Program-made: the position numbers and the translations under genes
Shown: positions 556 to 43,746 of the stretch, piece after piece
How the letters are laid out: each line of letters starts with the position of its first letter
How positions within the stretch are numbered: the first letter of the stretch is position 1
Assembly (NCBI GenBank): GCA_043738155.1
Contig: JAYSZH010000032.1
Coordinates: 1-44,277, forward strand
Length of the DNA: 44,277 nt
DNA from: Polaromonas sp.
Lineage (GTDB): Bacteria; Pseudomonadota; Gammaproteobacteria; Burkholderiales; Burkholderiaceae_C
Reading direction: 5' to 3'
Notes under the pieces: generated by a model
Database searches by the model: none
Told to the model about the DNA's origin: nothing
Seen by the model: only the letters and a program-made list of their open reading frames with translations

Positions 556-630
556 AGCGGTTTTTAAACCCTAAATATGACGTTAGCCGGCGTATTTATT
601 AACTAAGTAGCTATTAAAAATATAGCAATA
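556..630 (-). repeat. Dispersed repeat copy 1 (reverse orientation), in the fabH-fabD intergenic region
   Basis: The reverse complement of 574..629 is TTGCTATATTTTTAATAGCTACTTAGTTAATAAATACGCCGGCTAACGTCATATTT. The core AATAAATACGCCGGCTA is exact (complement of 585..601). Confidence 0.9.
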
Positions 631-3064: not shown

Positions 3065-3188
3065 GATGTGGCTCCTAAACTGTAAATACTAACGATGAAT
3101 ATTAAAAATGTGCCACATGGATGTGACTCTAGCTGCACACTTTAAGCACAGCGAAGCCCACGATTATAGCGCATTCCTAGCGAAATTG

Positions 3189-3812
3189 CTACTTTTTACC
3201 CCCTACCTTGCCTTTTAAAGAGGCCAATACCGCGAATGGGTTGGGTTTGCCTGCCCCGACAGCTTCGGCATCGCCTTCAAAATCAGCATCAGACGCAGAC
3301 ATTTTTGGCGTCACAGGGCAAACATCGTGCAACGGCACTTGCGGCAAGGCCATCAAAAGCTCATCCTCAATCAGCTCAGACAAGTTAAATTCACGGCTGA
3401 TGGCCAGCAAATCTTCATCGCATTCGTCATCTTCGGCTTCTGCAGTCGCCTCATCCGCCACAAATCGGTAAGAGCGATCGACTTCTAAAAGCGTGGAAAC
3501 CTCGCCCAGGCAACGCTGGCAGGTTTGTGGCAAATGCGTTTGGGCGGTCAAATGCAACCAAACCCGAGGCTTAACCTTGGCAAGTTCGCCCGCGCTTTCA
3601 ACCAGCTCACCATCCGCCCGCCAAACAACACTCTCTGACGGGGTTAAATTATCCTCTAGCCGGCACGATTCCTGCCTTAAGCGCTCATATTTTAATAGCG
3701 AATCTTGTCCTTTCAGGTAGCCATTCACCTGCGCCAAACCCGCCACATCGAGGCGGTCTGCACGGAAATTCAAGCTCAAATCTTTCTTTGATGCATTCAT
3801 ACTGTCACTCAC
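3189..3812 (-). CDS. yceD: YceD/DUF177 family protein (large-subunit ribosome maturation factor)
   Basis: 207-aa acidic ORF with a CQRCL Cys pair, immediately upstream of rpmF in the classical arrangement. The start could instead be the ATG four codons downstream (MNASKK). Confidence 0.85.
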   Translation of the reverse strand: MSDSMNASKKDLSLNFRADRLDVAGLAQVNGYLKGQDSLLKYERLRQESCRLEDNLTPSESVVWRADGELVESAGELAKVKPRVWLHLTAQTHLPQTCQRCLGEVSTLLEVDRSYRFVADEATAEAEDDECDEDLLAISREFNLSELIEDELLMALPQVPLHDVCPVTPKMSASDADFEGDAEAVGAGKPNPFAVLASLKGKVGGKK

Positions 3813-5448: not shown

Positions 5449-7176
5449 ATGCGCCACCTCAATCGTTATCTCTTCACAGCATCGCTGCTCTTCACCGCAT
5501 TGACGGTTGACGCAGTGCAACTCGGTTCTGCAAAAGGCTCTGCCGTTTTCGGTCGTCCCCTCGATTTAAGTGTGCAAGTGCGTTTAGACGCACCCGCAGA
5601 AGAAGCTAGCAATTGCTTTAGCGCTGAAGTTTTTCAAGCAGACACCAAATTTGATGTGGGACGCGTTCGCCTAGATGTGACACCAGCAGCCAATGGTTTG
5701 GACGCGACTGTGCGTGTTCGCTCTGCAACCGCTGTCAACGAGCCTTGGGCTAAAGTCATCCTGCGCAGCAATTGCGGCACAAAAGTGTCACGGCAATATG
5801 ATTTTTTGACGGATTTTGTGGCAGATACGCCCGTTGGTAGCATCCAGGCTGAAACGGCACCGGCTCTGCCAACGGCAAATACAGCAAGCTTTGCGAATGC
5901 GGCGGCTAAGCCTAGTGCGGCTATCGCACAAGCACCTGTTTCTAACTGGAGCGTGAAGCGCTCTCAAGCAAAGGCAAAAACATCACAACAAAAGCCAGAC
6001 ACGCAGATCGCACAAGCACCTTTAGCGTCAAAAAAATTAAAACCTATTGCACCTGCCACTGCTGTTTCAACGGCTGGCGCAAAGATGACAACTGACATGG
6101 TTGCCGATGCTGTGGGGCAATCAAGGCTGAAAATGGAAACATTTGAGTTGACGGACGAACATCAAGTTCTCCTCAAGCTGTCTACTGCCTTGGTCGCACC
6201 GACAGGCATGCGAACACCTGAGGAAATTCAAGCACTGGCTCAAGCAACTGCGGTTTGGCGCGCGATCAATGGCATCCCAGCTGATATCAAGGCAGTTGAA
6301 ACTTCAGCTACAGATATATTAGCCTCAGCTCAAATCAAAGCACCAGCAGTGTCAGCACCGCCAGTGACTACACCCTCGCTGATGAATCAAAAACTAGCGG
6401 GAAAAAGCGAATTCTCCAACCTGATGGTGTATGGCCTCATCGGTTTACTGGCTTTAGCGCTTGCTTGTATCGCTTGGTTGTGGCTGCGGGTTCGTAGAGC
6501 TTCGCGTGCTGGCTACGGATGGTTGAATGATTCTGTGACAGATGATGCAGCTGCTGATCATGAGCAAACTCAATTTTTGCATTCCAATTTTTACGAAACT
6601 GAAATTGCAGCTCAAGACAAGCCAGAACCAAGCTTTGAAACGGAAACCGAAGTAGATGCGGGGACCACAACAAAAGCAGCAGTTGACGAAATATTTACAG
6701 AAGTCGTTGAAGATGAAAACGTGCAAGTCGCCTCTTTGTCGTCCAGCCCTTTGGCATCACTGGTAGCGCACAACAACAGCAATGAATCTAACCCATTTGA
6801 CGGGTCGACACAAAAATCTGATTTAAAAACTGGAAAATCAGTTGCCGCAACGAACAAGCAAATTAGCAGCCGGATGCCTCCGCATTTTGATGATCCACGG
6901 TTTGACGAGCGCGTGCTGCTTGCCAAGAAAAAACCCCGCGAAGTCTCTCATGAGCAACCCATCACATCTTCGGTTGAATTGATCAACTTGGTTTTGGCTG
7001 ACACACCACCCAAGTTGAGATCAGTGACAACGCTGGTTCCAGAGTCTAAGAACAAGCAAAGCGCTACAACAAGTAAAGCTGCATCAACAAAAGACGATCC
7101 TAAAAGCAACCTGATAGATTTTGACGCATTTGCAGAGCCTGAGCCCCTGAATAAGCCGACACGCTTTGTCCGTTAA
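5449..7176 (+). CDS. Hypothetical single-pass membrane protein with a low-complexity acidic tail
   Basis: 575-aa ORF with a GGGA Shine-Dalgarno-like sequence just upstream. It has an N-terminal signal-like hydrophobic segment (LFTASLLFTALTV), an Ala/Pro/Thr/Gln-rich middle, one clear TM helix (MVYGLIGLLALALACIAWLWL) and an acidic C-terminal half. Confidence 0.7.
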   Translation: MRHLNRYLFTASLLFTALTVDAVQLGSAKGSAVFGRPLDLSVQVRLDAPAEEASNCFSAEVFQADTKFDVGRVRLDVTPAANGLDATVRVRSATAVNEPWAKVILRSNCGTKVSRQYDFLTDFVADTPVGSIQAETAPALPTANTASFANAAAKPSAAIAQAPVSNWSVKRSQAKAKTSQQKPDTQIAQAPLASKKLKPIAPATAVSTAGAKMTTDMVADAVGQSRLKMETFELTDEHQVLLKLSTALVAPTGMRTPEEIQALAQATAVWRAINGIPADIKAVETSATDILASAQIKAPAVSAPPVTTPSLMNQKLAGKSEFSNLMVYGLIGLLALALACIAWLWLRVRRASRAGYGWLNDSVTDDAAADHEQTQFLHSNFYETEIAAQDKPEPSFETETEVDAGTTTKAAVDEIFTEVVEDENVQVASLSSSPLASLVAHNNSNESNPFDGSTQKSDLKTGKSVAATNKQISSRMPPHFDDPRFDERVLLAKKKPREVSHEQPITSSVELINLVLADTPPKLRSVTTLVPESKNKQSATTSKAASTKDDPKSNLIDFDAFAEPEPLNKPTRFVR

Positions 7177-7208: not shown

Positions 7209-8333
7209 TTAAGCAAACACGCCAGCCGTGTTTTGCATGCGGTTGGATACCTCACCCAACTGGTGCAAGGTGTCGCCAAATGTCATCTCTAGCTGCGTCA
7301 AGTGCTTGAAGTAATGGCTGACAATGTACTCGTCCGTCACACCAATACCGCCGTGTAGTTGCACAGCTTGCTGGCCCACAAAACGCATGGAATTGCCCAA
7401 TTGGTACTTAGCGCGTGCCATCGCAGCGCGGCGTTCTGCTGCGGGGGCATTGAGTTTCAGCGCTGCGTAATAGCTCATGGAGCGCGCCAATTCCAGCTGC
7501 ATCTTCACATCGGCCATGCGGTGGCGCAGCGCTTGGAAGCTGCTGATAACCACACCAAACTGCTTTCGGGTGTTCATGTACTCGGCGGTGATGGCGACGG
7601 TTTTGTCCATAGCGCCCACAGCTTCGGCACAAGTTGCGGCGATTCCGATGTCCACGCCATGCTCCAAAGCCGTTAAACCGTCCAAGGTGACCAACTGCGC
7701 TGGCGCATTTGTCAATCTCAATTCCGCAGCACGGCCACCGTTTTGTGTGCCATAGCCAGTAGTTGTGACACCGGCCGCTGTGCGCTCCACTAAAAACATC
7801 GCCATCTTGCCATCTAGCATCGCTGGAACCAAAAATGCATCTGCTTTATCACCCACAGGCACTATGCTTTTTATAGCTGATAAAGCATATTTATCGCCGG
7901 CTACAGCCATTTTTGATGCCGTAGAAGCACATAGATCCAAGTTATACCGCGCTGCACGCTCTTGGTAAGCCAGTACAACCAACGCCTCACCTGCTGCAAT
8001 TTTTGGCAACCAATCCGCTTTGATAGCTGCCGACGCATAGCCTGACAACAAGCCACTGGCAATCAATGTTTGCGCAAATGGCTCAAGCACGATGCCCCGC
8101 CCCAGTTCCTCCATCACCACCATGCCTTCTACAGGCCCCATGCCCAGACCGCCATCTTCTTCTGCGATGTACAACCCGCCAAGACCCAATTCGGCGATTT
8201 CATCGAATGCTTCTTTTGAAAAACCACCGCTATTTTCAATACTACGGCGGCGCTCAAAAGTGTAGGCTTTGTCTACCCATTTGCGGACCGCATCTCGCAA
8301 TTGTTCTTGGTCGTCTGTGAAATCGAAATTCAT
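7209..8333 (-). CDS. Acyl-CoA dehydrogenase family protein (downstream member of a tandem pair)
   Basis: 374-aa ORF with ACAD-like N-terminal (MNFDFTDDQEQLRDAVRKW), middle and C-terminal (QLHGGIGVTDEY) regions. Confidence 0.85.
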   Translation of the reverse strand: MNFDFTDDQEQLRDAVRKWVDKAYTFERRRSIENSGGFSKEAFDEIAELGLGGLYIAEEDGGLGMGPVEGMVVMEELGRGIVLEPFAQTLIASGLLSGYASAAIKADWLPKIAAGEALVVLAYQERAARYNLDLCASTASKMAVAGDKYALSAIKSIVPVGDKADAFLVPAMLDGKMAMFLVERTAAGVTTTGYGTQNGGRAAELRLTNAPAQLVTLDGLTALEHGVDIGIAATCAEAVGAMDKTVAITAEYMNTRKQFGVVISSFQALRHRMADVKMQLELARSMSYYAALKLNAPAAERRAAMARAKYQLGNSMRFVGQQAVQLHGGIGVTDEYIVSHYFKHLTQLEMTFGDTLHQLGEVSNRMQNTAGVFA

Positions 8334-9649: not shown

Positions 9650-10387
9650 TCATGGCTGAGACAGACCCAACTCTTTGCTCAGGTTTTCAACAATCTGCCG
9701 CAAATGTGCGACTTCATGCTCCAAGGCGCTGATACGCTGGTGAATCACCGATCCCTCGTTCGTAGCCAACTCTTGCGCCTCATTCTCGGTCGCCAACAAC
9801 GCCAAATCGACCGGACCGCACATCAAGTGCGTCCAACGCTGCTCGCGCGTTCCTGGGGCACGGGGCAGTTTTTGCACCAGCGGCCCGCCTTTCTCCGAGG
9901 ATCGGTCTTGCAGTTCTTCTAAAAACCCCTCTACGGATGAAATATCAGCAAATTTATACCAGCGCTCTGAATTGATGCGCAGCTCGCCTGCTGTTTGCGG
10001 GCCACGCAACATCAGCAAACCCAAAATAACGGCAGATTGCTCAGGCACGCCCACAGCGCGCTGAAAATTATGCTCAAAGCGCGTACTTCTGCTGCCGCTG
10101 ACCTCCCGAACGAGGGGTTGTCCAATAGAATTTGCTATATTTTTCATAGCTGTTAAGGCATTAAATACGTCGGCTTCGGTCAATTCCATGCTAGGAAAAC
10201 GGCTGCTTTTTTGATTGCAACCTAAAAGCAAAGAATTCAGCGTCAGTGGGTAGCTGTCGGGCACAGTGCGGGCTTTTTCCATCAAGGTGCCCAAGACGCG
10301 GGCTTGAATGGTGGTTAAATCTGGTAAATTTTTGGTGACTGTGTGTATGTCTATTTGTGCACCTGTAGCGTCAATGATGTTTTCCAA
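9650..10387 (-). CDS. YceH/DUF480 family protein
   Basis: 245-aa [38 protein letters not shown] parallels the E. coli YceH N-terminus ([35 protein letters not shown]). Confidence 0.85.
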
Positions 10388-10417: not shown

Positions 10418-11002
10418 ATGAAGAATATCGTGATTTTGATCTCTGGCGGCGGTTCTAACATGGCCGCCATCGTTAAAACAGCCAAAACTCAGCAATGGGA
10501 GACCGTTTTGAACGCCCGTGTGGCGGCGGTGATCAGCAACCGCGCCGATGCGGCTGGTTTGTTGTGGGCGAAAAAACAGGGTATTGACACCGCCAGCATT
10601 GACCACAACACATTTAGTTCACGTGAGGCATTTGACCAAGCGCTGATGCAGCACATCGATGCGCACAACCCCACGCTGGTCGTTCTGGCAGGATTTATGC
10701 GTATTTTGACGCCAACTTTTGTAACGCACTATGCGGGCCGACTGATCAACATTCACCCGTCCTTGCTTCCCGCGTTTACAGGTTTGCACACGCACCAGCG
10801 CGCTATTGATGCAGGCTGTAAGTTTGCCGGCGCAACCGTGCACCAGGTAACGGCCGAACTCGATGTTGGCCCTATTTTGGAGCAAGCCGTGGTTCCAATT
10901 TTGAGCACCGATACAGCAGATACTTTGGCCACTAAAGTTCTCTCTCAAGAGCATTTGATATATCCGCAAACAATTGCAAAACTGATCAAATCTTGCAGCT
11001 GA
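10418..11002 (+). CDS. purN: Phosphoribosylglycinamide formyltransferase
   Basis: The ATG at 10418 gives MKNIVILISGGGSNM..., followed by the LAGFMRIL and INIHPSLLP motifs. The longer ORF-track start at 10343 would overlap the yceH start. Confidence 0.9.
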   Translation: MKNIVILISGGGSNMAAIVKTAKTQQWETVLNARVAAVISNRADAAGLLWAKKQGIDTASIDHNTFSSREAFDQALMQHIDAHNPTLVVLAGFMRILTPTFVTHYAGRLINIHPSLLPAFTGLHTHQRAIDAGCKFAGATVHQVTAELDVGPILEQAVVPILSTDTADTLATKVLSQEHLIYPQTIAKLIKSCS

Positions 11003-12301: not shown

Positions 12302-12385
12302 GCTATTTTTGCTATTTTTGCTATATTTTTTATAGCTAATTAGGCAATAAATACGCCGGCTATAGGTCTATTTTCTGCCTCTAAA
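12302..12385 (+). repeat. Dispersed repeat copy 2, preceded by a GCTATTTTT x3 micro-tandem
   Basis: 12318..12373 reads TTGCTATATTTTTTATAGCTAATTAGGCAATAAATACGCCGGCTATAGGTCTATTT. The core is exact at 12346..12362. It lies between convergent gene ends. Confidence 0.9.
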
Positions 12386-15696: not shown

Positions 15697-18621
15697 TTAC
15701 GCCAATCTTGTTAATTGATCTTGTAGTTTCAGCAACGTAGCGGTATTGTCAGCAACCCGTTTGCGCTCCAACTCAATCACCGCTGGTGGCGCTTTGGCGA
15801 CGAAGGCTTCGTTGCTGAGTTTGCCGTTCACGCGGGCGATTTCGCCTTGCAGGCGCGTCACTTCTTTACCAATACGCAGTTTCTCGGCAGCAGCGTCAAT
15901 TTCCATGTGCAGGCACATGCGCAAATCACCCACCACAGACACAGGTGAAGCTTGCGCTGCAGATTGCCAAGTGGTTTCATCGTCAAACACTTTGACTTCA
16001 CTGAGTTTGGCAAGTGATTTCAACACCGGCGCAACATCGCGCATGAATGCCGCTTCAACTGCGTTAGCCGGCAGGGCAAACATCGGCAGCTTGGTCGATG
16101 GCGGCACGTTCATCTCACTGCGCAAGGTACGGCAACTATCGACCAAGCCTTTAAGTTTGGCGACGTGCGCCTCGGCAGCAGTATCTATACGATTTGGCTG
16201 GCTCACAGGGTACGCAGCAATACTGACACTTTCACCCGCTCTTCCAGCAACAGGTGCAACTTTTTGCCACAACTCTTCGGTAATGAACGGAATCACAGGG
16301 TGCGCCAAGCGTTGAATCGTCTCCAGCGTGCGAATCAAAGTACGGCGTGTGGCGCGTTGCTGTGATTCGTCACCAGTCTGGATTTGCACTTTGGCGATCT
16401 CCAAATACCAATCGCAAAACTCGTCCCATACAAACTGGTAAATGCTGTTGGCGACGTTATCCAAACGGTAATCTTCAAAACCTTTGGCAACGTCAGCCTC
16501 AACCCGCTGCAGAGCCGAGACAATCCAACGGTCGGCTTGGCTGAAGTTCAGATACCCGTGCGCAGAACCGCCCACTTCGCATTCGGCTTTGGTGTGCTCA
16601 CGCAAACCACAATCTTGTCCTTCGCAATTCATCAATACAAAGCGGGTGGCGTTCCACAGCTTGTTGCAGAAGTTGCGGTAGCCCTCGCAGCGTTTGCTGT
16701 CAAAGCTGATGTTCCGACCCAGCGATGCCAACGAGGCAAAGGTAAAACGTAACGCATCTGCGCCAAAGGCTGGAATACCATCCGGAAACTCTTTTTCAGT
16801 GTTTTTACGAACCGTAGGCGCGGTTTCGGGTTTGCGCAGACCTGTAGTGCGTTTGTCGAGTAACGGCGCCAAGGTGATACCGTCGATCAAATCGACCGGA
16901 TCCAGCACATTGCCTTCCGACTTGCTCATCTTCTTGCCCTGCGCATCACGCACCAGGCCGTGGATGTAGACATGCTTGAAAGGCACTTTGCCCGTGAAAT
17001 GCTTGGTCATCATGATCATGCGGGCAACCCAGAAGAAGATGATGTCGTAGCCGGTGACCAGCACGCTGGATGGCAGATACAAGTCCATGTCTTCGGTCTG
17101 CTCTGGCCAGCCCATGGTGCTGAATGGCACCAGCGCGGATGAATACCAGGTATCCAGCACGTCCTCATCCCGGCTGAGTGTCTTACCCGGTGCTTGCGCT
17201 TGCGCCTCGGCTTCATCTCTGGCCACATAGACTTTGCCGTCTTCGTCATACCAGGCTGGGATTTGATGACCCCACCACAATTGGCGCGAGATGCACCAAT
17301 CTTGGATATTTTTCATCCACTGGTCATAGGTGTTGACCCACTGTTCAGGGACGAATTTCACTTCGCCAGACGCTACTGCATCAATAGCACCTTGGGCAAT
17401 AGATACACCGTCTACAGCATTATTTTCAGGTGTTTTTGTCATCGCCACGAACCACTGATCCGTCAGCATCGGTTCAATCACTTGGCCAGTACGGGTGCAA
17501 ATCGGCACCATGTTTTTATGCGGCACAGCTTTTTGCAGGAAACCTTGCTCCTCCAAATCTTTTAAAACCGCTTTGCGGCAATCGTAGCGGTCTAGGCCTT
17601 GGTAGGCAACAGGGCCGTTTTCGTTGATCTTGGCATCCAGTGTGAAAATGGTGATCAGCGGCAGGTTGTGGCGCTGGCTACAGGCGTAGTCGTTAAAGTC
17701 ATGCGCACCGGTGATTTTGACGCACCCGCTGCCGAATTCACGGTCCACAAAGTCGTCAGCAATCACCGGGATTTTGCGGTCACACAAGGGCAAATCAACA
17801 AATTTACCCACCAAATGTTTGTAGCGCTCGTCTTCTGGGTGGACGCATAGCGCACCGTCGGCCAACATGGTCTCAGGTCGCGTGGTGGCGATGTGCAAGC
17901 CGCGAACGGTTGTGCCATCGCCTAAAGTTTGCGGACCGTCGCTGAACGGGTACTCGATGTGCCACATGAAGCTGTTACGCTCTTCGTTTTCAACTTCCAG
18001 GTCACTCACCGCCGATTTCAGCACCGGATCCCAGTTCACCAGGCGTTTGCCACGGTAAATCAAACCTTGCTCATACAAGCGGACAAAGGTTTCGGTCACG
18101 GTTTTGGACAACTTCGTATCCATCGTGAAGTATTCACGGCTCCAGTCCACACTCGCACCCATGCGGCGCATTTGGGTGGTGATGGTGTTGCCGCTTTGCT
18201 CTTTCCATTCCCACACTTTGGACACAAAGTTTTTGCGCGACTCAAAAGGCGTCGCGCCCATGTCGTGGCGACTGATGCCCTGCGCCTGCAGTTGACGCTC
18301 CACAACCACTTGGGTGGCAATACCCGCATGGTCCGTACCGGGAATCCAAGCGGTATTGAATCCGCTCATACGGTGGTAACGGGTCAGCGAGTCCATGATG
18401 GTCTGGTTGAAGGCATGGCCCATGTGCAGCGTGCCCGTCACATTGGGCGGCGGCAGCTGGATGGCAAAAGCGGGTGCCCCCTCTTTGGCCTGCTGTGTAC
18501 CGCGAAAACCCGCATCCGCGTAATGCCGCTTCTCCCACTCTGGCCCCCACTGAGCTTCAATAGCTGCAGGTTCGAACGATTTGGAAAGGGATTGAAGGCC
18601 AGGTTGCAAAATGTCGGTCAT
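15697..18621 (-). CDS. valS: Valine--tRNA ligase
   Basis: 974-aa ORF with [12 protein letters not shown] (HIGH motif), KMSKS, and a C-terminal coiled-coil. Confidence 0.97.
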
Positions 18622-20954: not shown

Positions 20955-20987
20955 TTTTCATAAAAAATTACTGATCTATTTGTAATT

Positions 20988-21050
20988 TTGCTATATTTTT
21001 AATAGCTAATTAAGCAATAAATACGCCGGCTAGATGTCGATTTTAGTCTT
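20988..21050 (+). repeat. Dispersed repeat copy 3
   Basis: 20988..21043 reads TTGCTATATTTTTAATAGCTAATTAAGCAATAAATACGCCGGCTAGATGTCGATTT. The core is exact at 21016..21032. It lies between the convergent cyclase and oxidoreductase ends. Confidence 0.9.
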
Positions 21051-31752: not shown

Positions 31753-34512
31753 ATGTCGAACTTACTTAGGTTTGCCCATTATTCACGGTTCTTTCAGCGC
31801 ATTGACAGGCGTTACACGGATTATTTAGCCGAACTAGCGCCAGGTGAGCCGCAGCGCGCTGCGATGCAAAGTACCTTTGATGCCCTGCGACAGCAAGGCC
31901 TAGATACCAGCGCGGCGTTGCGCATTTTGCGGCAATTGGTCATGCACAGGCTCATCCAATTGGATTGCGAGCAGCATGCCGCCCTGCGCGTGGTTACCCA
32001 TGCGGTGACTGATTTGGCAGAATTGGCCCTTGAAATAGCTTTAAAAACCGCTTACGAAGAGCTTGATGCTTTGCACGGACAGCCAGTCAACGCGCAGATG
32101 TGGGTTGTTGGCATGGGCAAGCTGGGTGCGCGTGAGCTCAATGTTTCAAGCGATATTGACTTGATCTACGTGTACGACCAGGACGGTGAAACGATTGGCA
32201 ACACTGAGGGTCGCAACAAAATCTCGCACCATGAGTATTTTGCCAAAGCAGTCAAAATCGTCTACGACTTGGTGGGTGCAACCACAGAGCATGGCTTCGT
32301 CTTTCGGGTCGATTTAGCGCTGCGTCCGCATGGCAATTCTGGGCCTGCGGCAATTTCTTTGTCTGGGTTAGAGCAATATTTGCAAGTTCAAGGTCGTGAG
32401 TGGGAGCGTTTTGCGTGGCTAAAAAGCCGAGTTGTTGCACCGCAAAGCAGTATTCGTCACGATTCCGGCAACAGCTCCGCCAAAGCGTTACGCGATGTTG
32501 TCTTGCCATTTGTATTCAGAAAATACCTGGATTACAACGTTTTTGAGTCGTTGCGCACGCTGCACCGCCAGATTCGTCAAGAATCTGCCCGCCGCAGCGC
32601 TGGCCGGCCTGAGCGGGCGAATGATGTCAAACTCTCGCGTGGCGGTATCCGCGAGATTGAATTTACCGTGCAACTGCTGCAAGTGGTGCGCGGCGGCCAA
32701 TACCCTGAACTGCGCAGACGCCCCACGTTGGACGCCCTGCAGCGCGTTGCTCACGCCGGCTTGATGCCGCAAACCACCGCTGATGCCTTGTCCAAAGCCT
32801 ATGAATTTTTACGCCGTGTGGAGCACCGCATTCAATACCTAGACGACCAGCAAACCCACGCCATGCCCACGCAAGACGCTGATTTGCAGTGGATTGCGCA
32901 AAGCATGGGCTACAAAGAGTGCGACAGCGACAGCTGCGCGTTTTTGACCGATTTAGATGCCCACCGCGAACTGGTGGCAAATGAGTTTGACAAACTTTTA
33001 GGCGGTTTTCAGCAAACCAGCTCAAATTTAAAAGACTGCGGCACGCAGGAATGCAAGGTTTGCCCCTCCCCTTCAAGTTCATCTTCAAGTTCATCAACAC
33101 CGTCCTTAGCGTCAACCTCTGCTGAAAACCACCCAAATGCAGCCTTTGACAAACGCGTTACCGAGCTTGCCGAGCACCCGCGCGTGCTGAGTCTGCGCGA
33201 AGACGCCCGAGGTCGCCTGATGCGCCTTGTAGAACGCACCAACACCTGGCTGCAAAGCGGTCGCGTCACCGAGCTTGCCGCCCTGCGTAGTGCTGATTTT
33301 TTAGAGCCACTCCTACGTCGCGAAAGCTACCTGGCATTGCTGTGGGAGCGCCCCGTGGTGCACGAACGCCTGCTCAAACTCCTAGGCAGCGCCCGCTGGC
33401 CAGCCAAGTATTTGCTGCAACACCCCGGCGTGATGGACGAACTGGCGGGTGACGCGTGGTTGACCGAGCGTTTTAACCCGCCAGAATTTGAAGCCGAACT
33501 GGCGCTACGTATCAAATCGTTGAAATCCACGGGCGAAGACGATGTAGAAACCCTGCTAAACCTGCTGCGCCGTGCCCACCACGCAGAGCTGTTTCGCACC
33601 CTGGCACGTGATATTGAAGGTCAACTCACTGTTGAGCAAGTGGCTGATGACCTGAGCGCGCTGGCAGACACCGTGCTGCGCGTCACCGTGGCTTGGTGTT
33701 GGGAGCGGCACAAAAACAAACACTTGGATTACCCCCAAATCGCCATCATCGGCTATGGCAAATTGGGTGGCAAAGAGCTGGGCTACGGCAGCGACTTGGA
33801 CATCGTCTTCATTTACGAAGACATCGATGAAAATGCTGGTGAAATATACAGCTCATTTGTGCGCAAACTCATCACCTGGTTGGACACCAAGACCTCAGAA
33901 GGCGATTTGTTCGAAATCGACACCGCCCTGCGCCCCAACGGCAATTCCGGCCTGTTGGTGACTAGCTTTGCGGCATTCTCAGACTACCAAGAAAAGCGCG
34001 GCAGCAACACCGCATGGACTTGGGAACACCAAGCCATGACCCGCGCCCGATTCGTCGCGGGCTACGAACCCTTACGCGCCAAGTTCGACCAAGTCCGCCA
34101 AAACGTCATCTCTGCCCCGCGCGATTTACCCGCTTTGAAGCAAGAAATCATCGCCATGCGCGACAAAGTCCGCGCTGCGCATGTTGTCAAAGCTGATTTA
34201 TTCGACGTGAAACACAGCCCCGGCGGCATGCTAGACGCCGAATTCGCTGTGCAATACCTCGTTTTAGCCCACAGCGCCGTCCACCCCGAACTGCAACCCA
34301 ACCTAGGCAACATCGCCCTGATGCAACGCGCTGAAGCCGTCGGCTTGCTCCCAGCCGGCATAGGCGAAGCCGCAGCCACCGCCTACCGCAACCTGCGCCA
34401 CGCCCAACACGTAGCCCGCCTGGACGAAGCGCCTACGCAAGTGTCGGGTGCTGAAATGCAGGTGGAAATGGACGCGATGTTAGAGCTTTGGGATGCGGTT
34501 TTTGCTATATAA
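31753..34512 (+). CDS. glnE: Bifunctional glutamine synthetase adenylyltransferase/adenylyl-removing enzyme
   Basis: 919-aa ORF with two nucleotidyltransferase modules (GMGKLGARELNVSSDIDLIYVY and GYGKLGGKELGYGSDLDIVFIY), joined by a Ser-rich linker. Confidence 0.95.
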   Translation: MSNLLRFAHYSRFFQRIDRRYTDYLAELAPGEPQRAAMQSTFDALRQQGLDTSAALRILRQLVMHRLIQLDCEQHAALRVVTHAVTDLAELALEIALKTAYEELDALHGQPVNAQMWVVGMGKLGARELNVSSDIDLIYVYDQDGETIGNTEGRNKISHHEYFAKAVKIVYDLVGATTEHGFVFRVDLALRPHGNSGPAAISLSGLEQYLQVQGREWERFAWLKSRVVAPQSSIRHDSGNSSAKALRDVVLPFVFRKYLDYNVFESLRTLHRQIRQESARRSAGRPERANDVKLSRGGIREIEFTVQLLQVVRGGQYPELRRRPTLDALQRVAHAGLMPQTTADALSKAYEFLRRVEHRIQYLDDQQTHAMPTQDADLQWIAQSMGYKECDSDSCAFLTDLDAHRELVANEFDKLLGGFQQTSSNLKDCGTQECKVCPSPSSSSSSSSTPSLASTSAENHPNAAFDKRVTELAEHPRVLSLREDARGRLMRLVERTNTWLQSGRVTELAALRSADFLEPLLRRESYLALLWERPVVHERLLKLLGSARWPAKYLLQHPGVMDELAGDAWLTERFNPPEFEAELALRIKSLKSTGEDDVETLLNLLRRAHHAELFRTLARDIEGQLTVEQVADDLSALADTVLRVTVAWCWERHKNKHLDYPQIAIIGYGKLGGKELGYGSDLDIVFIYEDIDENAGEIYSSFVRKLITWLDTKTSEGDLFEIDTALRPNGNSGLLVTSFAAFSDYQEKRGSNTAWTWEHQAMTRARFVAGYEPLRAKFDQVRQNVISAPRDLPALKQEIIAMRDKVRAAHVVKADLFDVKHSPGGMLDAEFAVQYLVLAHSAVHPELQPNLGNIALMQRAEAVGLLPAGIGEAAATAYRNLRHAQHVARLDEAPTQVSGAEMQVEMDAMLELWDAVFAI

Positions 34513-34568
34513 TTTATAGCTAATAAAGCAATAAATACGCCGGCTAGAGGCATATTTACCCCTCTAAA
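34501..34568 (+). repeat. Dispersed repeat copy 4, overlapping the glnE stop codon
   Basis: 34502..34557 reads TTGCTATATAATTTATAGCTAATAAAGCAATAAATACGCCGGCTAGAGGCATATTT. The core is exact at 34530..34546. It is followed by the hairpin TAGAGG-N10-CCTCTA. Confidence 0.9.
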
Positions 34569-37886: not shown

Positions 37887-37945
37887 TTACTATACTTTTA
37901 ATAGCTATTTAGGCAATAAATACGCTGGCTAGAGGCATATTTTAA
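37887..37945 (+). repeat. Dispersed repeat copy 5
   Basis: 37887..37942 reads TTACTATACTTTTAATAGCTATTTAGGCAATAAATACGCTGGCTAGAGGCATATTT. The core at 37915..37931 has one mismatch (C to T). It lies between the convergent yaeQ and sugar-binding-protein ends. Confidence 0.88.
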
Positions 37946-39175: not shown

Positions 39176-40093
39176 TCATTTTCTACCCACGCAAGGCTCA
39201 AACCCGCCTGATCCGCCACCCAGGGCGTAACCGATACCAAAACCGCCCGCTTTGGTCGAGCCTGATACGCCACCGCCAACCTTGATGGACAAGCGCTCTG
39301 TGATGCGCGTTGCCAAGCCGATGGCAAAGCCGTTCTCGCTGCCCGATTTGGCAACCCCCGCGCCTACATAAACCAAGCCGCATTCGCCTGTCGTTGGCAG
39401 CGGCATAAAGGCCGTTGCCATGGCGATAGCTGTAAGTTGAGCTGCTTTGCGGTCAACATCGGCCAGCTGTGACAAGGTGGCTGAATTCGGCGCTGAATCA
39501 CCCTTGTCTCCTTTGTCGCCCTTGTCCCCCTTCAAACCATCAGCACCATTGGTTCCGTTTGCGCCAGTGCCACCATTGGCTCCGTTTGCGCCAGTGCCAC
39601 CGTTGGCTCCGTTCACCCCAGCCACACCCTGAATTCCTTGAGCACCAGTAGCTCCGTTCGTTCCATTGGTTCCGTTCGTTCCATTGGTTCCGTTCGTTCC
39701 GCTGGTTCCGTTCGTTCCGCTGGTTCCTGCTGCACCTTGAGCGCCAGTTGCTCCCGTCGCTCCAGTTGCTCCGGTTGCACCTCGCGGCCCTGTTGCACCT
39801 GCTGGACCCATCGGCCCTGTTGCACCTGTTGGTCCTGTTGGACCCATCGGCCCTGTTGCACCTGTTGGTCCTGCAGATCCTGCAGGTCCTGTGGCTCCTG
39901 TATCACCAGTATGCCCACGTGTCCCTGGAGTGCCCGGAGGGCCGTCATCATTGCCACTGGCTGAGGCTGCTGTTGCGTGCAGCACCCCCATCACCAGCAC
40001 GGCACTAGGTGCTAGATAAGCGCCTGACAGCATCAAAGACGCCAGTAATGCGCTGTGGATACGATTTGTCGGTTTCTGAATGCGATGTGTCAT
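39176..40093 (-). CDS. Secreted collagen-like (Gly-X-Y) repeat protein with a YadA-like C-terminal anchor candidate
   Basis: The start ATG (complement of 40091..40093) is preceded by AGGAG at 7-nt spacing. The signal peptide is [45 protein letters not shown]. About 50 uninterrupted GXY triplets run from [13 protein letters not shown] to [12 protein letters not shown]. The ~100-aa tail is [70 protein letters not shown]. Confidence 0.85.
39494..39943 (-). repeat. In-frame 9-, 18- and 27-bp tandem repeat tracts encoding the Gly-X-Y region
   Basis: Examples are GGTTCCGTTCGTTCCATT / GGTTCCGTTCGTTCCGCT units (about 39655..39725), a duplicated 27-mer CCCATCGGCCCTGTTGCACCTGTTGGT (about 39800..39875), a 27-mer duplication around 39565..39620, and (GDK)x3 at 39497..39530. 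Confidence 0.85.
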
Positions 40094-40516
40094 TGCAGCT
40101 CTCCTCGGAGGTATTGAATTTGTAACATTTCTAGCTTCAAAACCGCAGAAAAAGAAGATTTGTGTACTTTTTAAGTCACATACTTCCAAAATTAATGCTG
40201 TTTGTACTTATTTTGTTGACATTTGTCACAATGAGCAATACCCATTTTTTTGAGCATTAAAAGTGTCAAATCCACCCAAAATTAGCTACAGAAAAGATAG
40301 CGAAACGGGTTTTCTCACATTGGTGAATGTGTAGCTTTGTAAGTATTTAAGTAATTTTTAAGAGATGATTGTTAGGCGGTCACCCTATATGTTTCAATTT
40401 GTATTAAATGAAACAAAAAGAAACTGAACGTTCAAAATCTGAATCCGAAACAAATGCCGCCAGGCTTCATAAAAGTACTGACACTTTGAGATCAACAAAT
40501 GATGAAAAACGATAAA

Positions 40517-41496: not shown

Positions 41497-41566
41497 CAAT
41501 GAACCAATGCATTTATAATAGCAATAGCAAACTAATCAATAAATACGCCGGCTAGAGCCTTATTTA
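41492..41566 (+). repeat. Dispersed repeat copy 6 (left arm rearranged), spanning both convergent stop codons
   Basis: 41510..41565 reads CATTTATAATAGCAATAGCAAACTAATCAATAAATACGCCGGCTAGAGCCTTATTT. The core is exact at 41538..41554. The holin-like TAG (41494..41496) lies in an AAATAGCAAT motif, and the peptidase TAA is the complement of 41560..41562. Confidence 0.8.
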
Positions 41567-43167
41567 GCAGCATCTTTTTCGTCTTTTATCTGCTGCCGCA
41601 GCAGCTCTTGCACCTGGCGGGTGCGCACATCGATGATGGACTCTTCCACATAGTCGCGCCCCGCTGAAGCTCCCCAGCTCCTGACCACATCTTGCGCAGC
41701 TTTAAAGCGGTCTATGGCGGCGGCGTAATCCAACAAAGCCACCTGCGCTTCAGCTTCAGCCCGTACGGCGCGTAAGTTTTGGCCAGTGGCTCGGTAAGCA
41801 TTACCTAAAAGCTGCCAAGCGGGTGCGTCAGTTGGGTTTTTAGCGACCCAGGTCTGCAGGTTTTGCGTGGCTTGGCTGGCTAATTTGGCATCTTTTGCGG
41901 AAATTTGCACCTGTGACTGGGCGAACAACTCAGGCCGACTCAAACGCTGGCCTGTCGTTTGGATGGGCAGCAGCGTGAGGGCGGCTTCTGGATTGTTAGC
42001 AGCCAAATAGAGCTCAATTTCTATTAATTTTGCAGCTTTAGAAACAATGGAATCGCTGGCTATAGAACTATTTAGCCTGTCCTTTTGAACAGTTGCACGA
42101 GCAAAATCACGCAGCTTGATATTCGACAAAATAGCGGCGTACAAACTGGCGACTTGGTGCGCTTTGCTCAAGTTCAGAAACCCAGCCGCTTGCGGCTCTG
42201 CCGCCCACTGGCGCAGAACATCGATGCCTGGATCGGCCAACACACGGGCGCGGGCGGACATCATGGCGTGTTGCAGACTAGGCTCGGTTTGCGGGGCAAA
42301 TTTGGCCATATGCTGCTGAATCAGCAAGCGCTGCTGCATGTCACCCATGCGTTCCGTCGTCATGGGGTGGCTGCGCAGGTAGGGGAAGTTGCCGCTGTCG
42401 CTGAGGCGGGCTGATTGCTGCAGCTTCTCGAACATGCCCACAAAGCCCTGCGGCGCGAAACCGGCAGGCTGCATCAGCCCCAGCCCGAGGCGATCCGCCT
42501 CTCGCTCCATATCACGCGAAAAGTTGAGCTGGCCTTGGATAGCCACGGCTTGTGAGCCGGCAACGACGGCATTCAGCGCATCGGGGTTGTTACGCGCCGC
42601 CACTGCGCCCAAAATCATCGCCGCAATCATCACCGGCGTTTGCCGCCCCTGCTGGGTGATAGAGCGCGAAATGTGCCGCTGGGTGACGTGGGTGAGCTCG
42701 TGTGCTAACACAGACGCCAGCTCATCCTGATTCGCCACCAGTCCAATCAGCCCCAAATGCACGCCAAAATAACCGCCTGGCAGTGCAAACGCGTTGACCG
42801 TGCGATCCCGCGCCAGCATGACGCGCCAAGCGAAACGTTCGTCCATTTCAGGCGTCAATTCGCCTTTGGCTCGGGCGGCTTTTAAGAGCGATTGCCAAAT
42901 GCCATCCACATACTCGTTGAGCAGCGGGTCGTCCAAATAGTCGGGATCGCGATAGATTTGCTTGGCAATCGCGTCGCCCATACGCCGCTCAGCGCCTAGG
43001 GACAAGTCGCCGTCCTCGCCTACGCCCAAGAGTGGGGTCATGCCAGCGCGTTGGGCTGTGGCAGCCTGCCCTAGCGATAAACTCGGGCTAGCTAAACCTA
43101 AAAACAGCACGGTAGCAATAGCAAGGCTGTGTTTTTGAAAATAGGGTTGTTTGAATATTGATTTCAC
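41560..43167 (-). CDS. M48-family Zn metalloprotease with a TPR-like C-terminal domain (BepA/YfgC-like)
   Basis: It has the [10 protein letters not shown] (HExxH) motif, a signal-like N-terminus ([31 protein letters not shown]) and TPR-like helices in the C-terminal half. I chose the GTG start at 43167. The ORF-track TTG start at 43206 would overlap the moaC start. Confidence 0.8.
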
Positions 43168-43185
43168 AGCCTTATGATAGCGTTC

Positions 43186-43746
43186 ATGAGTATTAATTCC
43201 CCACAAAACACGTCTGGTTTCAACCCCTCTGGCAACACGTCAGGATTAACCCATTTCGACGCCCAAGGCCAGGCCCACATGGTCGATGTAGCAGCCAAAG
43301 CCGCCACCCACCGCATCGCAGTCGCCCAAGGCCGTATCACCATGCTGCCCGCCACGTTCGCCCTGATTGAAGCTGGAACGACTAAAAAAGGCGATGTGCT
43401 GGGCATCGCGCGGATTGCCGGTATTCAAGGCGCGAAGAAAACCAGCGATTTGATCCCGCTGTGTCATCCTCTGGCGTTAACCAGAGTTGCTATTGATTTT
43501 ATAGCTGATGAGGCAATAAATACGCCGGCTAATGTCAAAAATGACACTCTAAGATCGATCATCTGTACCGCCACAGTAGAAACCGTCGGTCAAACCGGTG
43601 TAGAAATGGAAGCCCTGACCGCCGTGCAGGTCGCCCTGCTCACCATCTACGACATGTGCAAAGCCGTCGACCGTGGCATGACGATGACCGATGTGCGGGT
43701 GTTGGAGAAACATGGCGGCAAGTCGGGAAGTTATGTGAATCCGTAA
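43186..43746 (+). CDS. moaC: Cyclic pyranopterin monophosphate synthase accessory protein MoaC, carrying an in-frame repeat-derived insert
   Basis: [69 protein letters not shown] and GGKSG all parallel E. coli MoaC. The start is the ATG at 43186 or at 43174, in the same frame. Confidence 0.92.
43486..43552 (+). repeat. Dispersed repeat copy 7, inside the moaC reading frame
   Basis: 43487..43542 reads TTGCTATTGATTTTATAGCTGATGAGGCAATAAATACGCCGGCTAATGTCAAAAAT. The core is exact at 43515..43531. It translates in frame as [20 protein letters not shown]. Confidence 0.88.

Follow-up and report, generated by a model that had tools for sequence, protein, structure and literature searches.

How does a copy of a repeat that is found mostly between genes come to be translated in frame within a gene, and why is it kept there? 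The question is raised by a 44,277-nt stretch of Polaromonas sp. DNA (GenBank assembly GCA_043738155.1, contig JAYSZH010000032.1, positions 1 to 44,277; the whole stretch is referred to below as the window). A short AT-rich repeat, here called R, recurs in the window and also lies within moaC, the gene for cyclic pyranopterin monophosphate synthase. The segment 43486-43552 is a confirmed, true member of the repeat family and is translated in frame within moaC. The copy is old; all relatives examined have it at the corresponding place, and it is neither a recent insertion nor an assembly error. The DNA letters of the in-gene copies are conserved beyond the needs of the protein. We lean, with moderate confidence, towards the explanation that the moaC copy is an old member of R which is maintained at the DNA level, arose by recoding or short-patch replacement and is held by selection or conversion. 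The features of the moaC locus are as follows.

43174 to 43746, plus strand: moaC, cyclic pyranopterin monophosphate synthase, 190 residues (from the list of open reading frames, with Pfam and PDB matches)
43486 to 43552, plus strand: in-frame copy of R in moaC, 22 codons, no in-frame stop (profile E=8e-13)
43487 to 43506, plus strand: inverted heptamers TTGCTAT / ATAGCT with the 7-nt spacer TGATTTT, over the native strand codons V-A-I-D-F-I-A
43511 to 43531, plus strand: 21-nt core AGGCAATAAATACGCCGGCTA, read as (E)AINTPA
43516 to 43548, plus strand: 11 codons gained on balance over ordinary MoaC (position approximate), at the predicted beta-hairpin tip; length varies in the clade

The MoaC product matches Pfam PF01967 over profile positions 1-136 of 136 (E=2e-54) and the PDB chains 4pyd and 1ekr, which are E. 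coli MoaC structures (E~1e-42). Among 50 homologues from the clade of close relatives, PLCHP, TGVEMEA and YDMCKA are invariant in all 50 and 88 columns outside the insert are without variation; the protein is thus under purifying selection. The M48 peptidase gene is divergent from moaC, and the longest open reading frames (ORFs) of the two share 33 nt at their 5' ends (43174-43206). MoaC proteins of relatives are called with later starts (155-198 residues), so the start of moaC, of the M48 gene or of both is probably over-extended.

An in-frame copy within moaC was first proposed in a reading made from the window's letters alone (the sequence-only reading), and the similarity withstands a proper statistical test. 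When the moaC copy was excluded and an nhmmer profile was made from the other seven, this profile matched 43485-43537 with 43.7 bits (E=8e-13 for a search of the 44-kb window). Without gaps, 43486-43552 agrees with the 56-nt family consensus at 45 of 56 positions; intergenic copies agree at 41-53 of 56. A repeat finder also groups 43487-43564 into a seven-copy family. The GC content of moaC is about 0.6 elsewhere in the gene and falls to 0.37-0.40 at 43460-43550.

The frame of the moaC copy is open where other copies are closed. Read in the moaC register, codon 9 of the element is TAG or TAA in copies c0, c2, c3, c5 and c6, and codon 4 is TAA in copy c4; the moaC copy has GAG at codon 9 and GAT at codon 4. 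The sequence-only reading had reported the codon-9 stop for c1, c2, c3 and c5, the codon-4 stop for c4 and sense codons in moaC, which is correct for all of these except c1. In that register c1 (10131-10183) is free of stops and reads GTT AAG. It had also been taken for an intergenic copy; it sits antisense within a YceH/UPF0502 gene.

The copy lengthens the protein. By an eye alignment, the stretch between LCHPL and TGVEMEAL had been put at 29 residues in E. coli and 40 here, an excess of about 11; HMMER alignments to 4pyd and 1ekr give the same figure, as 11 gap positions. Measured from PLCHP to TGVEME, the segment is 41 residues in this moaC and 38 to about 52 residues across the clade. Outgroup MoaC loci (158 from genomes and metagenomes, among the matches listed, with identity of at most 81%) have 30 residues in 121 cases and 34 in 17; about 164 loci were measured in all. 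The hairpin of clade MoaC is therefore 8 to about 22 residues longer than usual, and 11 residues longer here.

The lengthened hairpin is general among close relatives. The insert is present at the hairpin in 120 of the best 120 MoaC homologues (78-95% identity); INTPA, which corresponds to the core ATAAATACGCCGGCT, is conserved in these sequences and the length of the tail is variable. DNA was compared in the genomes of nine relatives and in one more divergent lineage (L209), all on independent contigs. The hairpin DNA matches the repeat model in 9/9 relatives (E=2e-13 to 2e-4) and also in L209, and the codons ATA AAT ACG CCG are retained in 7-9 of the nine genomes.

These data bear on the simplest alternative, namely that the copy is a chance resemblance or an assembly artefact. 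This has only the prior caution about metagenomic assemblies in its favour and is refuted by the profile score (E=8e-13) and by the same insert in more than 120 proteins and ten independent contigs. The clade assemblies are drawn from ENA, JGI, NCBI and Logan, and the frame is intact in independent assemblies from all four. Since the insert recurs in independent assemblies and in all of the relatives' genomes read, it is neither artefactual nor recent.

Outgroups that lack the family do not have the same loop, and the copy is lineage-specific. A repeat-model search of the outgroup loci listed found no copies except in L009, an uncultured Rhodoferax metagenome-assembled genome. L009 has a diverged variant of the repeat with the core CGCGGGCTA, and its moaC hairpin is ordinary and GC-rich; the family consequently extends beyond the clade, and not every genome that has it carries a copy in moaC. 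In the L009 copies at 3143-3199 and 5895-5956, the core AAYACGCGGGCTA replaces ATACGCCGGCTA. A neighbour-joining tree of MoaC, from which the hairpin was left out, places the clade as sister to Limnohabitans-like sequences, which are of the 30-residue type and use GC-rich codons. Rhodoferax-like sequences with 34-residue hairpins are not the immediate sister group of the clade in this tree. Three Rhodoferax- or Polaromonas-like loci (L001:10232-10366, L003:5998-6132 and L024:7122-7301) have MoaC hairpins that are 4 to 19 residues longer than usual, and they have the codons GCT ATT GAT TT in common.

How the copy came to be in moaC is a separate question. The sequence-only reading held that a mobile or recombinogenic repeat had landed in the gene, or had been recruited into it, in the manner of Rickettsia palindromic elements (RPEs), and was then kept under selection for an open frame. 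That the copy belongs to a lineage-specific family and has an open frame is supported. The RPE-style insertion is not supported in the form stated and is right only in part: no more than 33 nt of the 67-nt copy are additional, and the native residues VAIDF are overlaid by the repeat. The 67-nt copy comprises 22 codons, yet MoaC gains 11; the remainder, about half, lies over codons that are native to MoaC, a point that goes beyond the earlier reading. Codons 1-10 of the copy (GTT GCT ATT GAT TTT ATA GCT GAT GAG GCA) correspond in the alignment to the hairpin's native first strand. VAIDF also occurs in the MoaC of the family-free outgroups L001, L003 and L088, and the sister sequence L002 has DEA-T, in GC-rich codons, at the corresponding place. 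Since VAIDF and DEA-T occur without the family, what forms the left arm of the repeat is MoaC's own sequence, recoded in AT-rich codons. About 33 nt are gained on balance, and they lie around the core and the tail.

An AlphaFold model made with 50 clade sequences has strands at residues 101-114 and 127-139 and a loop at 115-126. Although the model is poor (pLDDT, the predicted local distance difference test, is 48), it suggests at low confidence a lengthened beta-hairpin with the copy-derived residues at its tip. This tip is presumably exposed, tolerant and far from the active site.

The other copies in the window offer a comparison. Four more lie within genes.

7862 to 7915, plus strand: copy within an acyl-CoA dehydrogenase-like gene, antisense in 7209 to 8333 (minus strand); nhmmer E=1e-6 and 2.5e-8; no residues added
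10131 to 10183, plus strand: copy c1 within a YceH/UPF0502 gene, antisense in 9650 to 10387 (minus strand); found by nhmmer; about 6 residues added
17372 to 17426, plus strand: copy within the valyl-tRNA synthetase (ValRS) gene, antisense in 15697 to 18621 (minus strand); nhmmer E=8e-5 and 2e-7; 11 residues added
42018 to 42076, plus strand: copy within the M48 peptidase gene, antisense in 41560 to 43206 (minus strand); no residues added

All four are antisense to their gene and are read in a single frame, in which the lone TAA has become TTA or CAA; of the five in-gene copies, only the one in moaC is not antisense. The YceH copy corresponds to a 6-residue gap against PDB 5vyv and 3bz6 (E. coli and P. 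syringae YceH), and the ValRS copy to an 11-residue gap against 1gax (T. thermophilus ValRS). The acyl-CoA dehydrogenase copy encodes the native GDxYxLxxxK strand, and the alignment to PDB 6wy8 has no insertion there.

The M48 peptidase gene is the cleanest case. With equal segment length throughout, the segment agrees with the R consensus at 24-41 of 56 positions in nine clade genomes and at 16-22 of 56 in 33 outgroups, and its GC content is 0.33-0.40 in the clade and 0.65-0.84 in the outgroups. The peptide encoded by the copy changes from LVAGDAPAARLANLLAAE, the outgroup form, to AVAGDLYALKATKLIAIE. Here the repeat has taken the place of the native sequence codon for codon.

These observations can be set against transposition, in which a small non-autonomous element of the miniature inverted-repeat transposable element type inserted into the moaC hairpin in the ancestor of the clade, was in frame by chance or through selection, and was trimmed later by deletions and substitutions, as an RPE might be. 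Several features agree with it. The net gain in moaC (8 to about 22 residues) is centred on the core and tail, and residues are also gained in ValRS (11) and YceH (6). Some copies have variable positions beside accessory genes, one locus (L084) has a tandem pair, and copies are found in phage contigs. The frames used within genes belong to the three frames with the fewest stops. It is difficult, however, to reconcile transposition with a 67-nt copy that adds only 33 nt and whose 5' third is native strand, or with the M48 and acyl-CoA dehydrogenase copies, which add nothing. No terminal inverted repeats or target-site duplications were seen in the aligned flanks of R copies. In addition, genomes that have diverged substantially at synonymous sites carry the copies at matching positions, and the copies themselves are synonymously conserved. 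Transposition is consequently regarded as somewhat unlikely. The zero gain in the M48 and acyl-CoA dehydrogenase genes and the conserved synonymous sites also speak against the word landed; recruited into is closer to the evidence.

RPEs are small mobile elements found in frame within protein-coding genes of Rickettsia (PMC10969869). R resembles them in being a dispersed repeat that is translated in frame in several unrelated housekeeping genes, at places which the protein tolerates. RPEs are about 150 bp and add their full length to the host protein; R copies of about 19-22 codons add 0-11 residues, and the 22-codon moaC copy adds 11. R copies also overlay native codons and are synonymously conserved, and no sequence relationship to RPEs is found.

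The synonymous conservation was measured as follows. At codon positions where two clade genomes encode the same amino acid, the fraction with the same codon was determined. In moaC this fraction is 0.81 inside the copy and 0.62 outside it, and 1 of 135 windows of equal size reaches the inside value; in the M48 gene it is 0.75 inside and 0.51 outside, and none of 485 windows reaches the inside value. GC at third codon positions is 0.24 inside and 0.64 outside the copy in moaC, and 0.26 and 0.60 in the M48 gene. The conserved boxes are the same in in-gene and intergenic copies. A merely tolerated insert would drift towards the codon usage of the genome; since these copies have not done so, they are not merely tolerated.

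What is conserved can be seen from the family as a whole, which was aligned from 54 copies in 194 kb of nine genomes. This corresponds to about one match per 3.6 kb. R is about 57-67 nt long and AT-rich (about 33% GC). Its order is TTGCTAT, a variable 7-nt spacer, ATAGC(T/A), about 5 variable nt, the core AGGCAATAAATACGCCGGCTA, about 5 variable nt and ATATTTA. The inverted arms are the best conserved columns and the spacer is the least conserved; the 21-nt core hardly varies among 35 intergenic and 19 in-gene copies. Some 76% of R positions are intergenic. The intergenic copies lie directly 3' of genes, mostly between convergent genes, and some supply a stop codon. Those in the window, including two that touch gene ends, are listed here.

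570 to 629, minus strand: intergenic copy 3' of fabH (repeat finder and nhmmer)
12318 to 12373, plus strand: intergenic copy 3' of a FeeM-like gene (repeat finder and nhmmer)
20987 to 21043, plus strand: intergenic copy between convergent cyclase and POR/DUF6537 genes (repeat finder and nhmmer)
34501 to 34560, plus strand: copy at the 3' end of glnE, giving its last codons and TAA stop; orthologous position in six genomes
37887 to 37943, plus strand: intergenic copy 3' of yaeQ, at an orthologous position in relatives; 96% identical to L169:6037
41514 to 41568, plus strand: copy at the convergent holin-like/M48 junction, overlapping the M48 stop codon

In glnE, the last five codons and the TAA stop come from the repeat (34497-34512), and this arrangement is kept in six genomes. 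The M48 stop codon, on the opposite strand, is overlapped by the repeat at 41560-41570. Positions 3' of glnE, 3' of yaeQ, at the holin/M48 junction, in the M48 gene and in moaC are common across the clade. The moaC, M48, glnE and yaeQ copies are fixed in the clade, and some copies beside accessory genes vary.

Position directly 3' of genes, mostly convergent ones, and the presence of two inverted repeats would suit a structured RNA at transcript 3' ends (a terminator, stabiliser or small RNA), with the moaC copy also acting as RNA. Both candidate hairpins were examined for compensatory change in 33 copies; there is one double-change pair, which is no better than shuffled sequences. The tail hairpin has a mean folding z-score of -0.6 and is inconsistent between copies. 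An Rfam scan of the window gives no match at the gathering score and, at relaxed settings, one chance-level match (E=0.42). The stems are AT-rich and have no U-tract, and four of the five in-gene copies are antisense to their gene. The RNA explanation was dropped because folding score, pair counts and Rfam are all null, and it is considered very improbable. Since there is neither covariation nor an Rfam match, R is conserved as sequence and not as structure, which points to recognition at the DNA level.

Orientation is also non-random. The moaC-sense strand carries 17 of the 21 distinct R positions (binomial p ~0.007). This strand has a negative GC skew (-0.02 to -0.05) in 9/9 loci (the window, L081, L084, L086 and L168-L172), and the orientation of R may be tied to the direction of replication.

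A DNA-level signal might spread by biased uptake. Competent cells would favour DNA that carries R, and better matches would spread, also within genes. Uptake sequences are known to behave in this way in coding regions: they are length-neutral, lie at less conserved residues and have motifs that vary between lineages (PMC2817400). R resembles the uptake signal sequences (USS) of Pasteurellaceae and the DNA uptake sequences (DUS) of Neisseriaceae in that it is dense, can be length-neutral in genes, falls at less conserved parts of proteins, is maintained at the DNA level and has lineage-specific core variants, such as CGCGGGCTA in L009. Codon replacement without change of length at fixed positions in relatives is seen in the M48 and acyl-CoA dehydrogenase genes, together with the synonymous excess. 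The differences are in anatomy: the core of a USS or DUS measures 9-12 nt, while R spans about 57 nt, has a 17:4 strand bias and is mostly intergenic. Uptake sequences occur in both orientations and are not known to have a bias like that of R. In view of its length, its strand bias and the 76% of positions that are intergenic, uptake drive is considered improbable.

R may also serve as a site of recombination. Inverted arms of 7 bp around a 7-bp spacer are the layout of a tyrosine-recombinase core site. In L169, a gene with a TIR domain is flanked by direct copies of R (1349 and 2601; span 1349-2658), both with the spacer TTAATTT; by identity this pair ranks 11th of 406. In L171, a block with a ParE toxin/antitoxin pair and DUF1016 lies between R copies at 10640 and 12491 (span to 12538), both with the otherwise unique spacer TTATTTC. 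These arrangements look like cassette insertion at R. Elsewhere in L171 (4517-7447), two uncharacterised ORFs alternate with three R copies, and L084:2438-2579 is an 'empty' tandem pair.

Viral contigs (IMG/VR) were scanned with a 15-mer; 36 loci matched, four of which contain the full repeat, and the rest are chance matches. The full copies are listed below.

L173, 1299 to 1349 and 7385 to 7436: full R copies in a phage contig
L174, 1543 to 1589 and 4977 to 5026: full R copies in a phage contig
L175, 3275 to 3330: full R copy in a phage contig
L176, 1468 to 1526: full R copy in a phage contig

Among the genes of these four contigs are those for a terminase, RecT/YqaJ, a CI-like repressor and DNA polymerase A. 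Contig L176 also encodes, at 115-1269 on the minus strand, a lambda-type tyrosine integrase that has an arm-binding domain; the R copy of this contig lies about 200 nt away and may be the phage attachment site (attP). Taken together, the cassette and phage cases suggest a role for R as a site of recombination.

On this basis, R could be an attachment (att)-like tyrosine-recombinase site for phages and cassettes and the moaC copy a bystander, which is not exclusive of maintenance at the DNA level. The layout of arms and variable spacer, the L169 and L171 blocks between direct copies with identical spacers and the four phage contigs, one with an integrase near its copy, all agree. There are, however, only two cassette cases and one integrase neighbour, and no integrase is seen beside chromosomal copies in 194 kb. 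The density of about one per 3.6 kb is also left unexplained, as is the synonymous conservation of the in-gene copies. As a full account of the moaC copy, an att-like site is considered unlikely.

By layout and context, R is closest to the dRS3 repeats of Neisseria, which it resembles in its arms and spacer, its density and its association with phages and variable genes. dRS3 repeats are about 20 bp, intergenic and present in hundreds of copies, about one per 3 kb, and they have short inverted arms around a variable spacer. These repeats and the mosaic elements built from them are phage integration sites and borders of variable genes. R differs in having the extra 21-nt core and copies within genes, and its link to phages and cassettes is based on very few cases.

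Other known repeats were compared and rejected. The Betaproteobacterial repeat element (BRE; Hot et al. 2011, PMC3110155) is found in Comamonadaceae among others and is mostly intergenic, with some copies wholly within coding sequences, and R is similar in these respects. BREs are about 90 bp, 69% GC and often tandem, and are not co-oriented with replication; R, at about 33% GC and 57 nt, dispersed and strand-biased, is not a BRE. Like the repetitive extragenic palindromic (REP) sequences and the bacterial interspersed mosaic elements (BIMEs), R is short, conserved and located 3' of genes, often between convergent ones. REPs are extragenic, GC-rich, imperfect palindromes of 20-40 nt; R does not form a single long palindrome and also occurs in genes, so it is not a REP on grounds of anatomy. 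An integron attC site was rejected as well, since the ends of R (TTGCTAT...ATATTTA) are not complementary and the motifs RYYYAAC/GTTRRRY are absent. A literature search with the core string of R found no papers, and the family is regarded as undescribed.

One further repeat lies in the window. Tandem 27-nt and 18-nt repeats (CACCATTGGTTCCGTTTGCGCCAGTGC and variants) at 39544-39705 are unrelated to R; the ORF that carries them (39176 to 40189, minus strand, 337 residues) has no assigned function.

The explanation favoured here, maintenance of R at the DNA level, would work as follows. R would be a signal that some factor reads sequence-specifically and that is kept dense on one strand. In-gene copies would form where the protein tolerates it, as existing codons are recoded or are replaced in short patches with small indels; clean transposition would not be the route. 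Selection acting on the signal would then keep the copies in place, or else conversion biased by the family's many other members would. For MoaC this would cost little, since the hairpin tip is presumably exposed and tolerant. Use of R as a recombination site would by itself leave the conservation of the in-gene copies unexplained.

Several points weigh against this explanation. We know of no mechanism that overprints about 57 nt. Sequence has really been added in moaC (8 to about 22 residues), in YceH (6) and in ValRS (11, against a distant reference), and an insertion step is possible for these three copies. The closest outgroups with a 34-residue hairpin, L001, L003 and L024, faintly resemble the repeat in the same register (E=0.1-3). 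This similarity could be that of a decayed older insertion; alternatively, the site may be prone to indels. Exposure of the hairpin tip is presumed from a poor model (pLDDT 48), and the neighbour-joining tree is built on 131 residues. Finally, only 9-10 genomes were read as DNA, in one syntenic region, and they are phylogenetically related.

A broader reading is possible, but is put forward tentatively and as clearly less probable than DNA-level maintenance of the moaC copy itself. R may be a new genomic signal of about 57 nt, a mark for recombination, 'self' or uptake, that is maintained on one strand throughout the genomes of an uncultured freshwater clade of Comamonadaceae and in its phages, under a pressure strong enough to rewrite the codons of essential genes (moaC, valS and the M48 peptidase gene).

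The in-gene repeats of Rickettsia are insertions, and short uptake sequences reshape codons in place; R resembles the latter and is far longer. In at least two genes it replaces native codons without a change of length, and it is kept across an uncultured freshwater clade. Annotators should not take AT-rich patches in the genes of such genomes for assembly errors. In MoaC, the tip of the beta-hairpin is marked as a site that tolerates insertion. A conserved, strand-biased 57-mer would provide a handle for finding the protein or process that reads R. If the same were true genome-wide, a DNA-level signal would dictate 15-20 consecutive codons of essential proteins.

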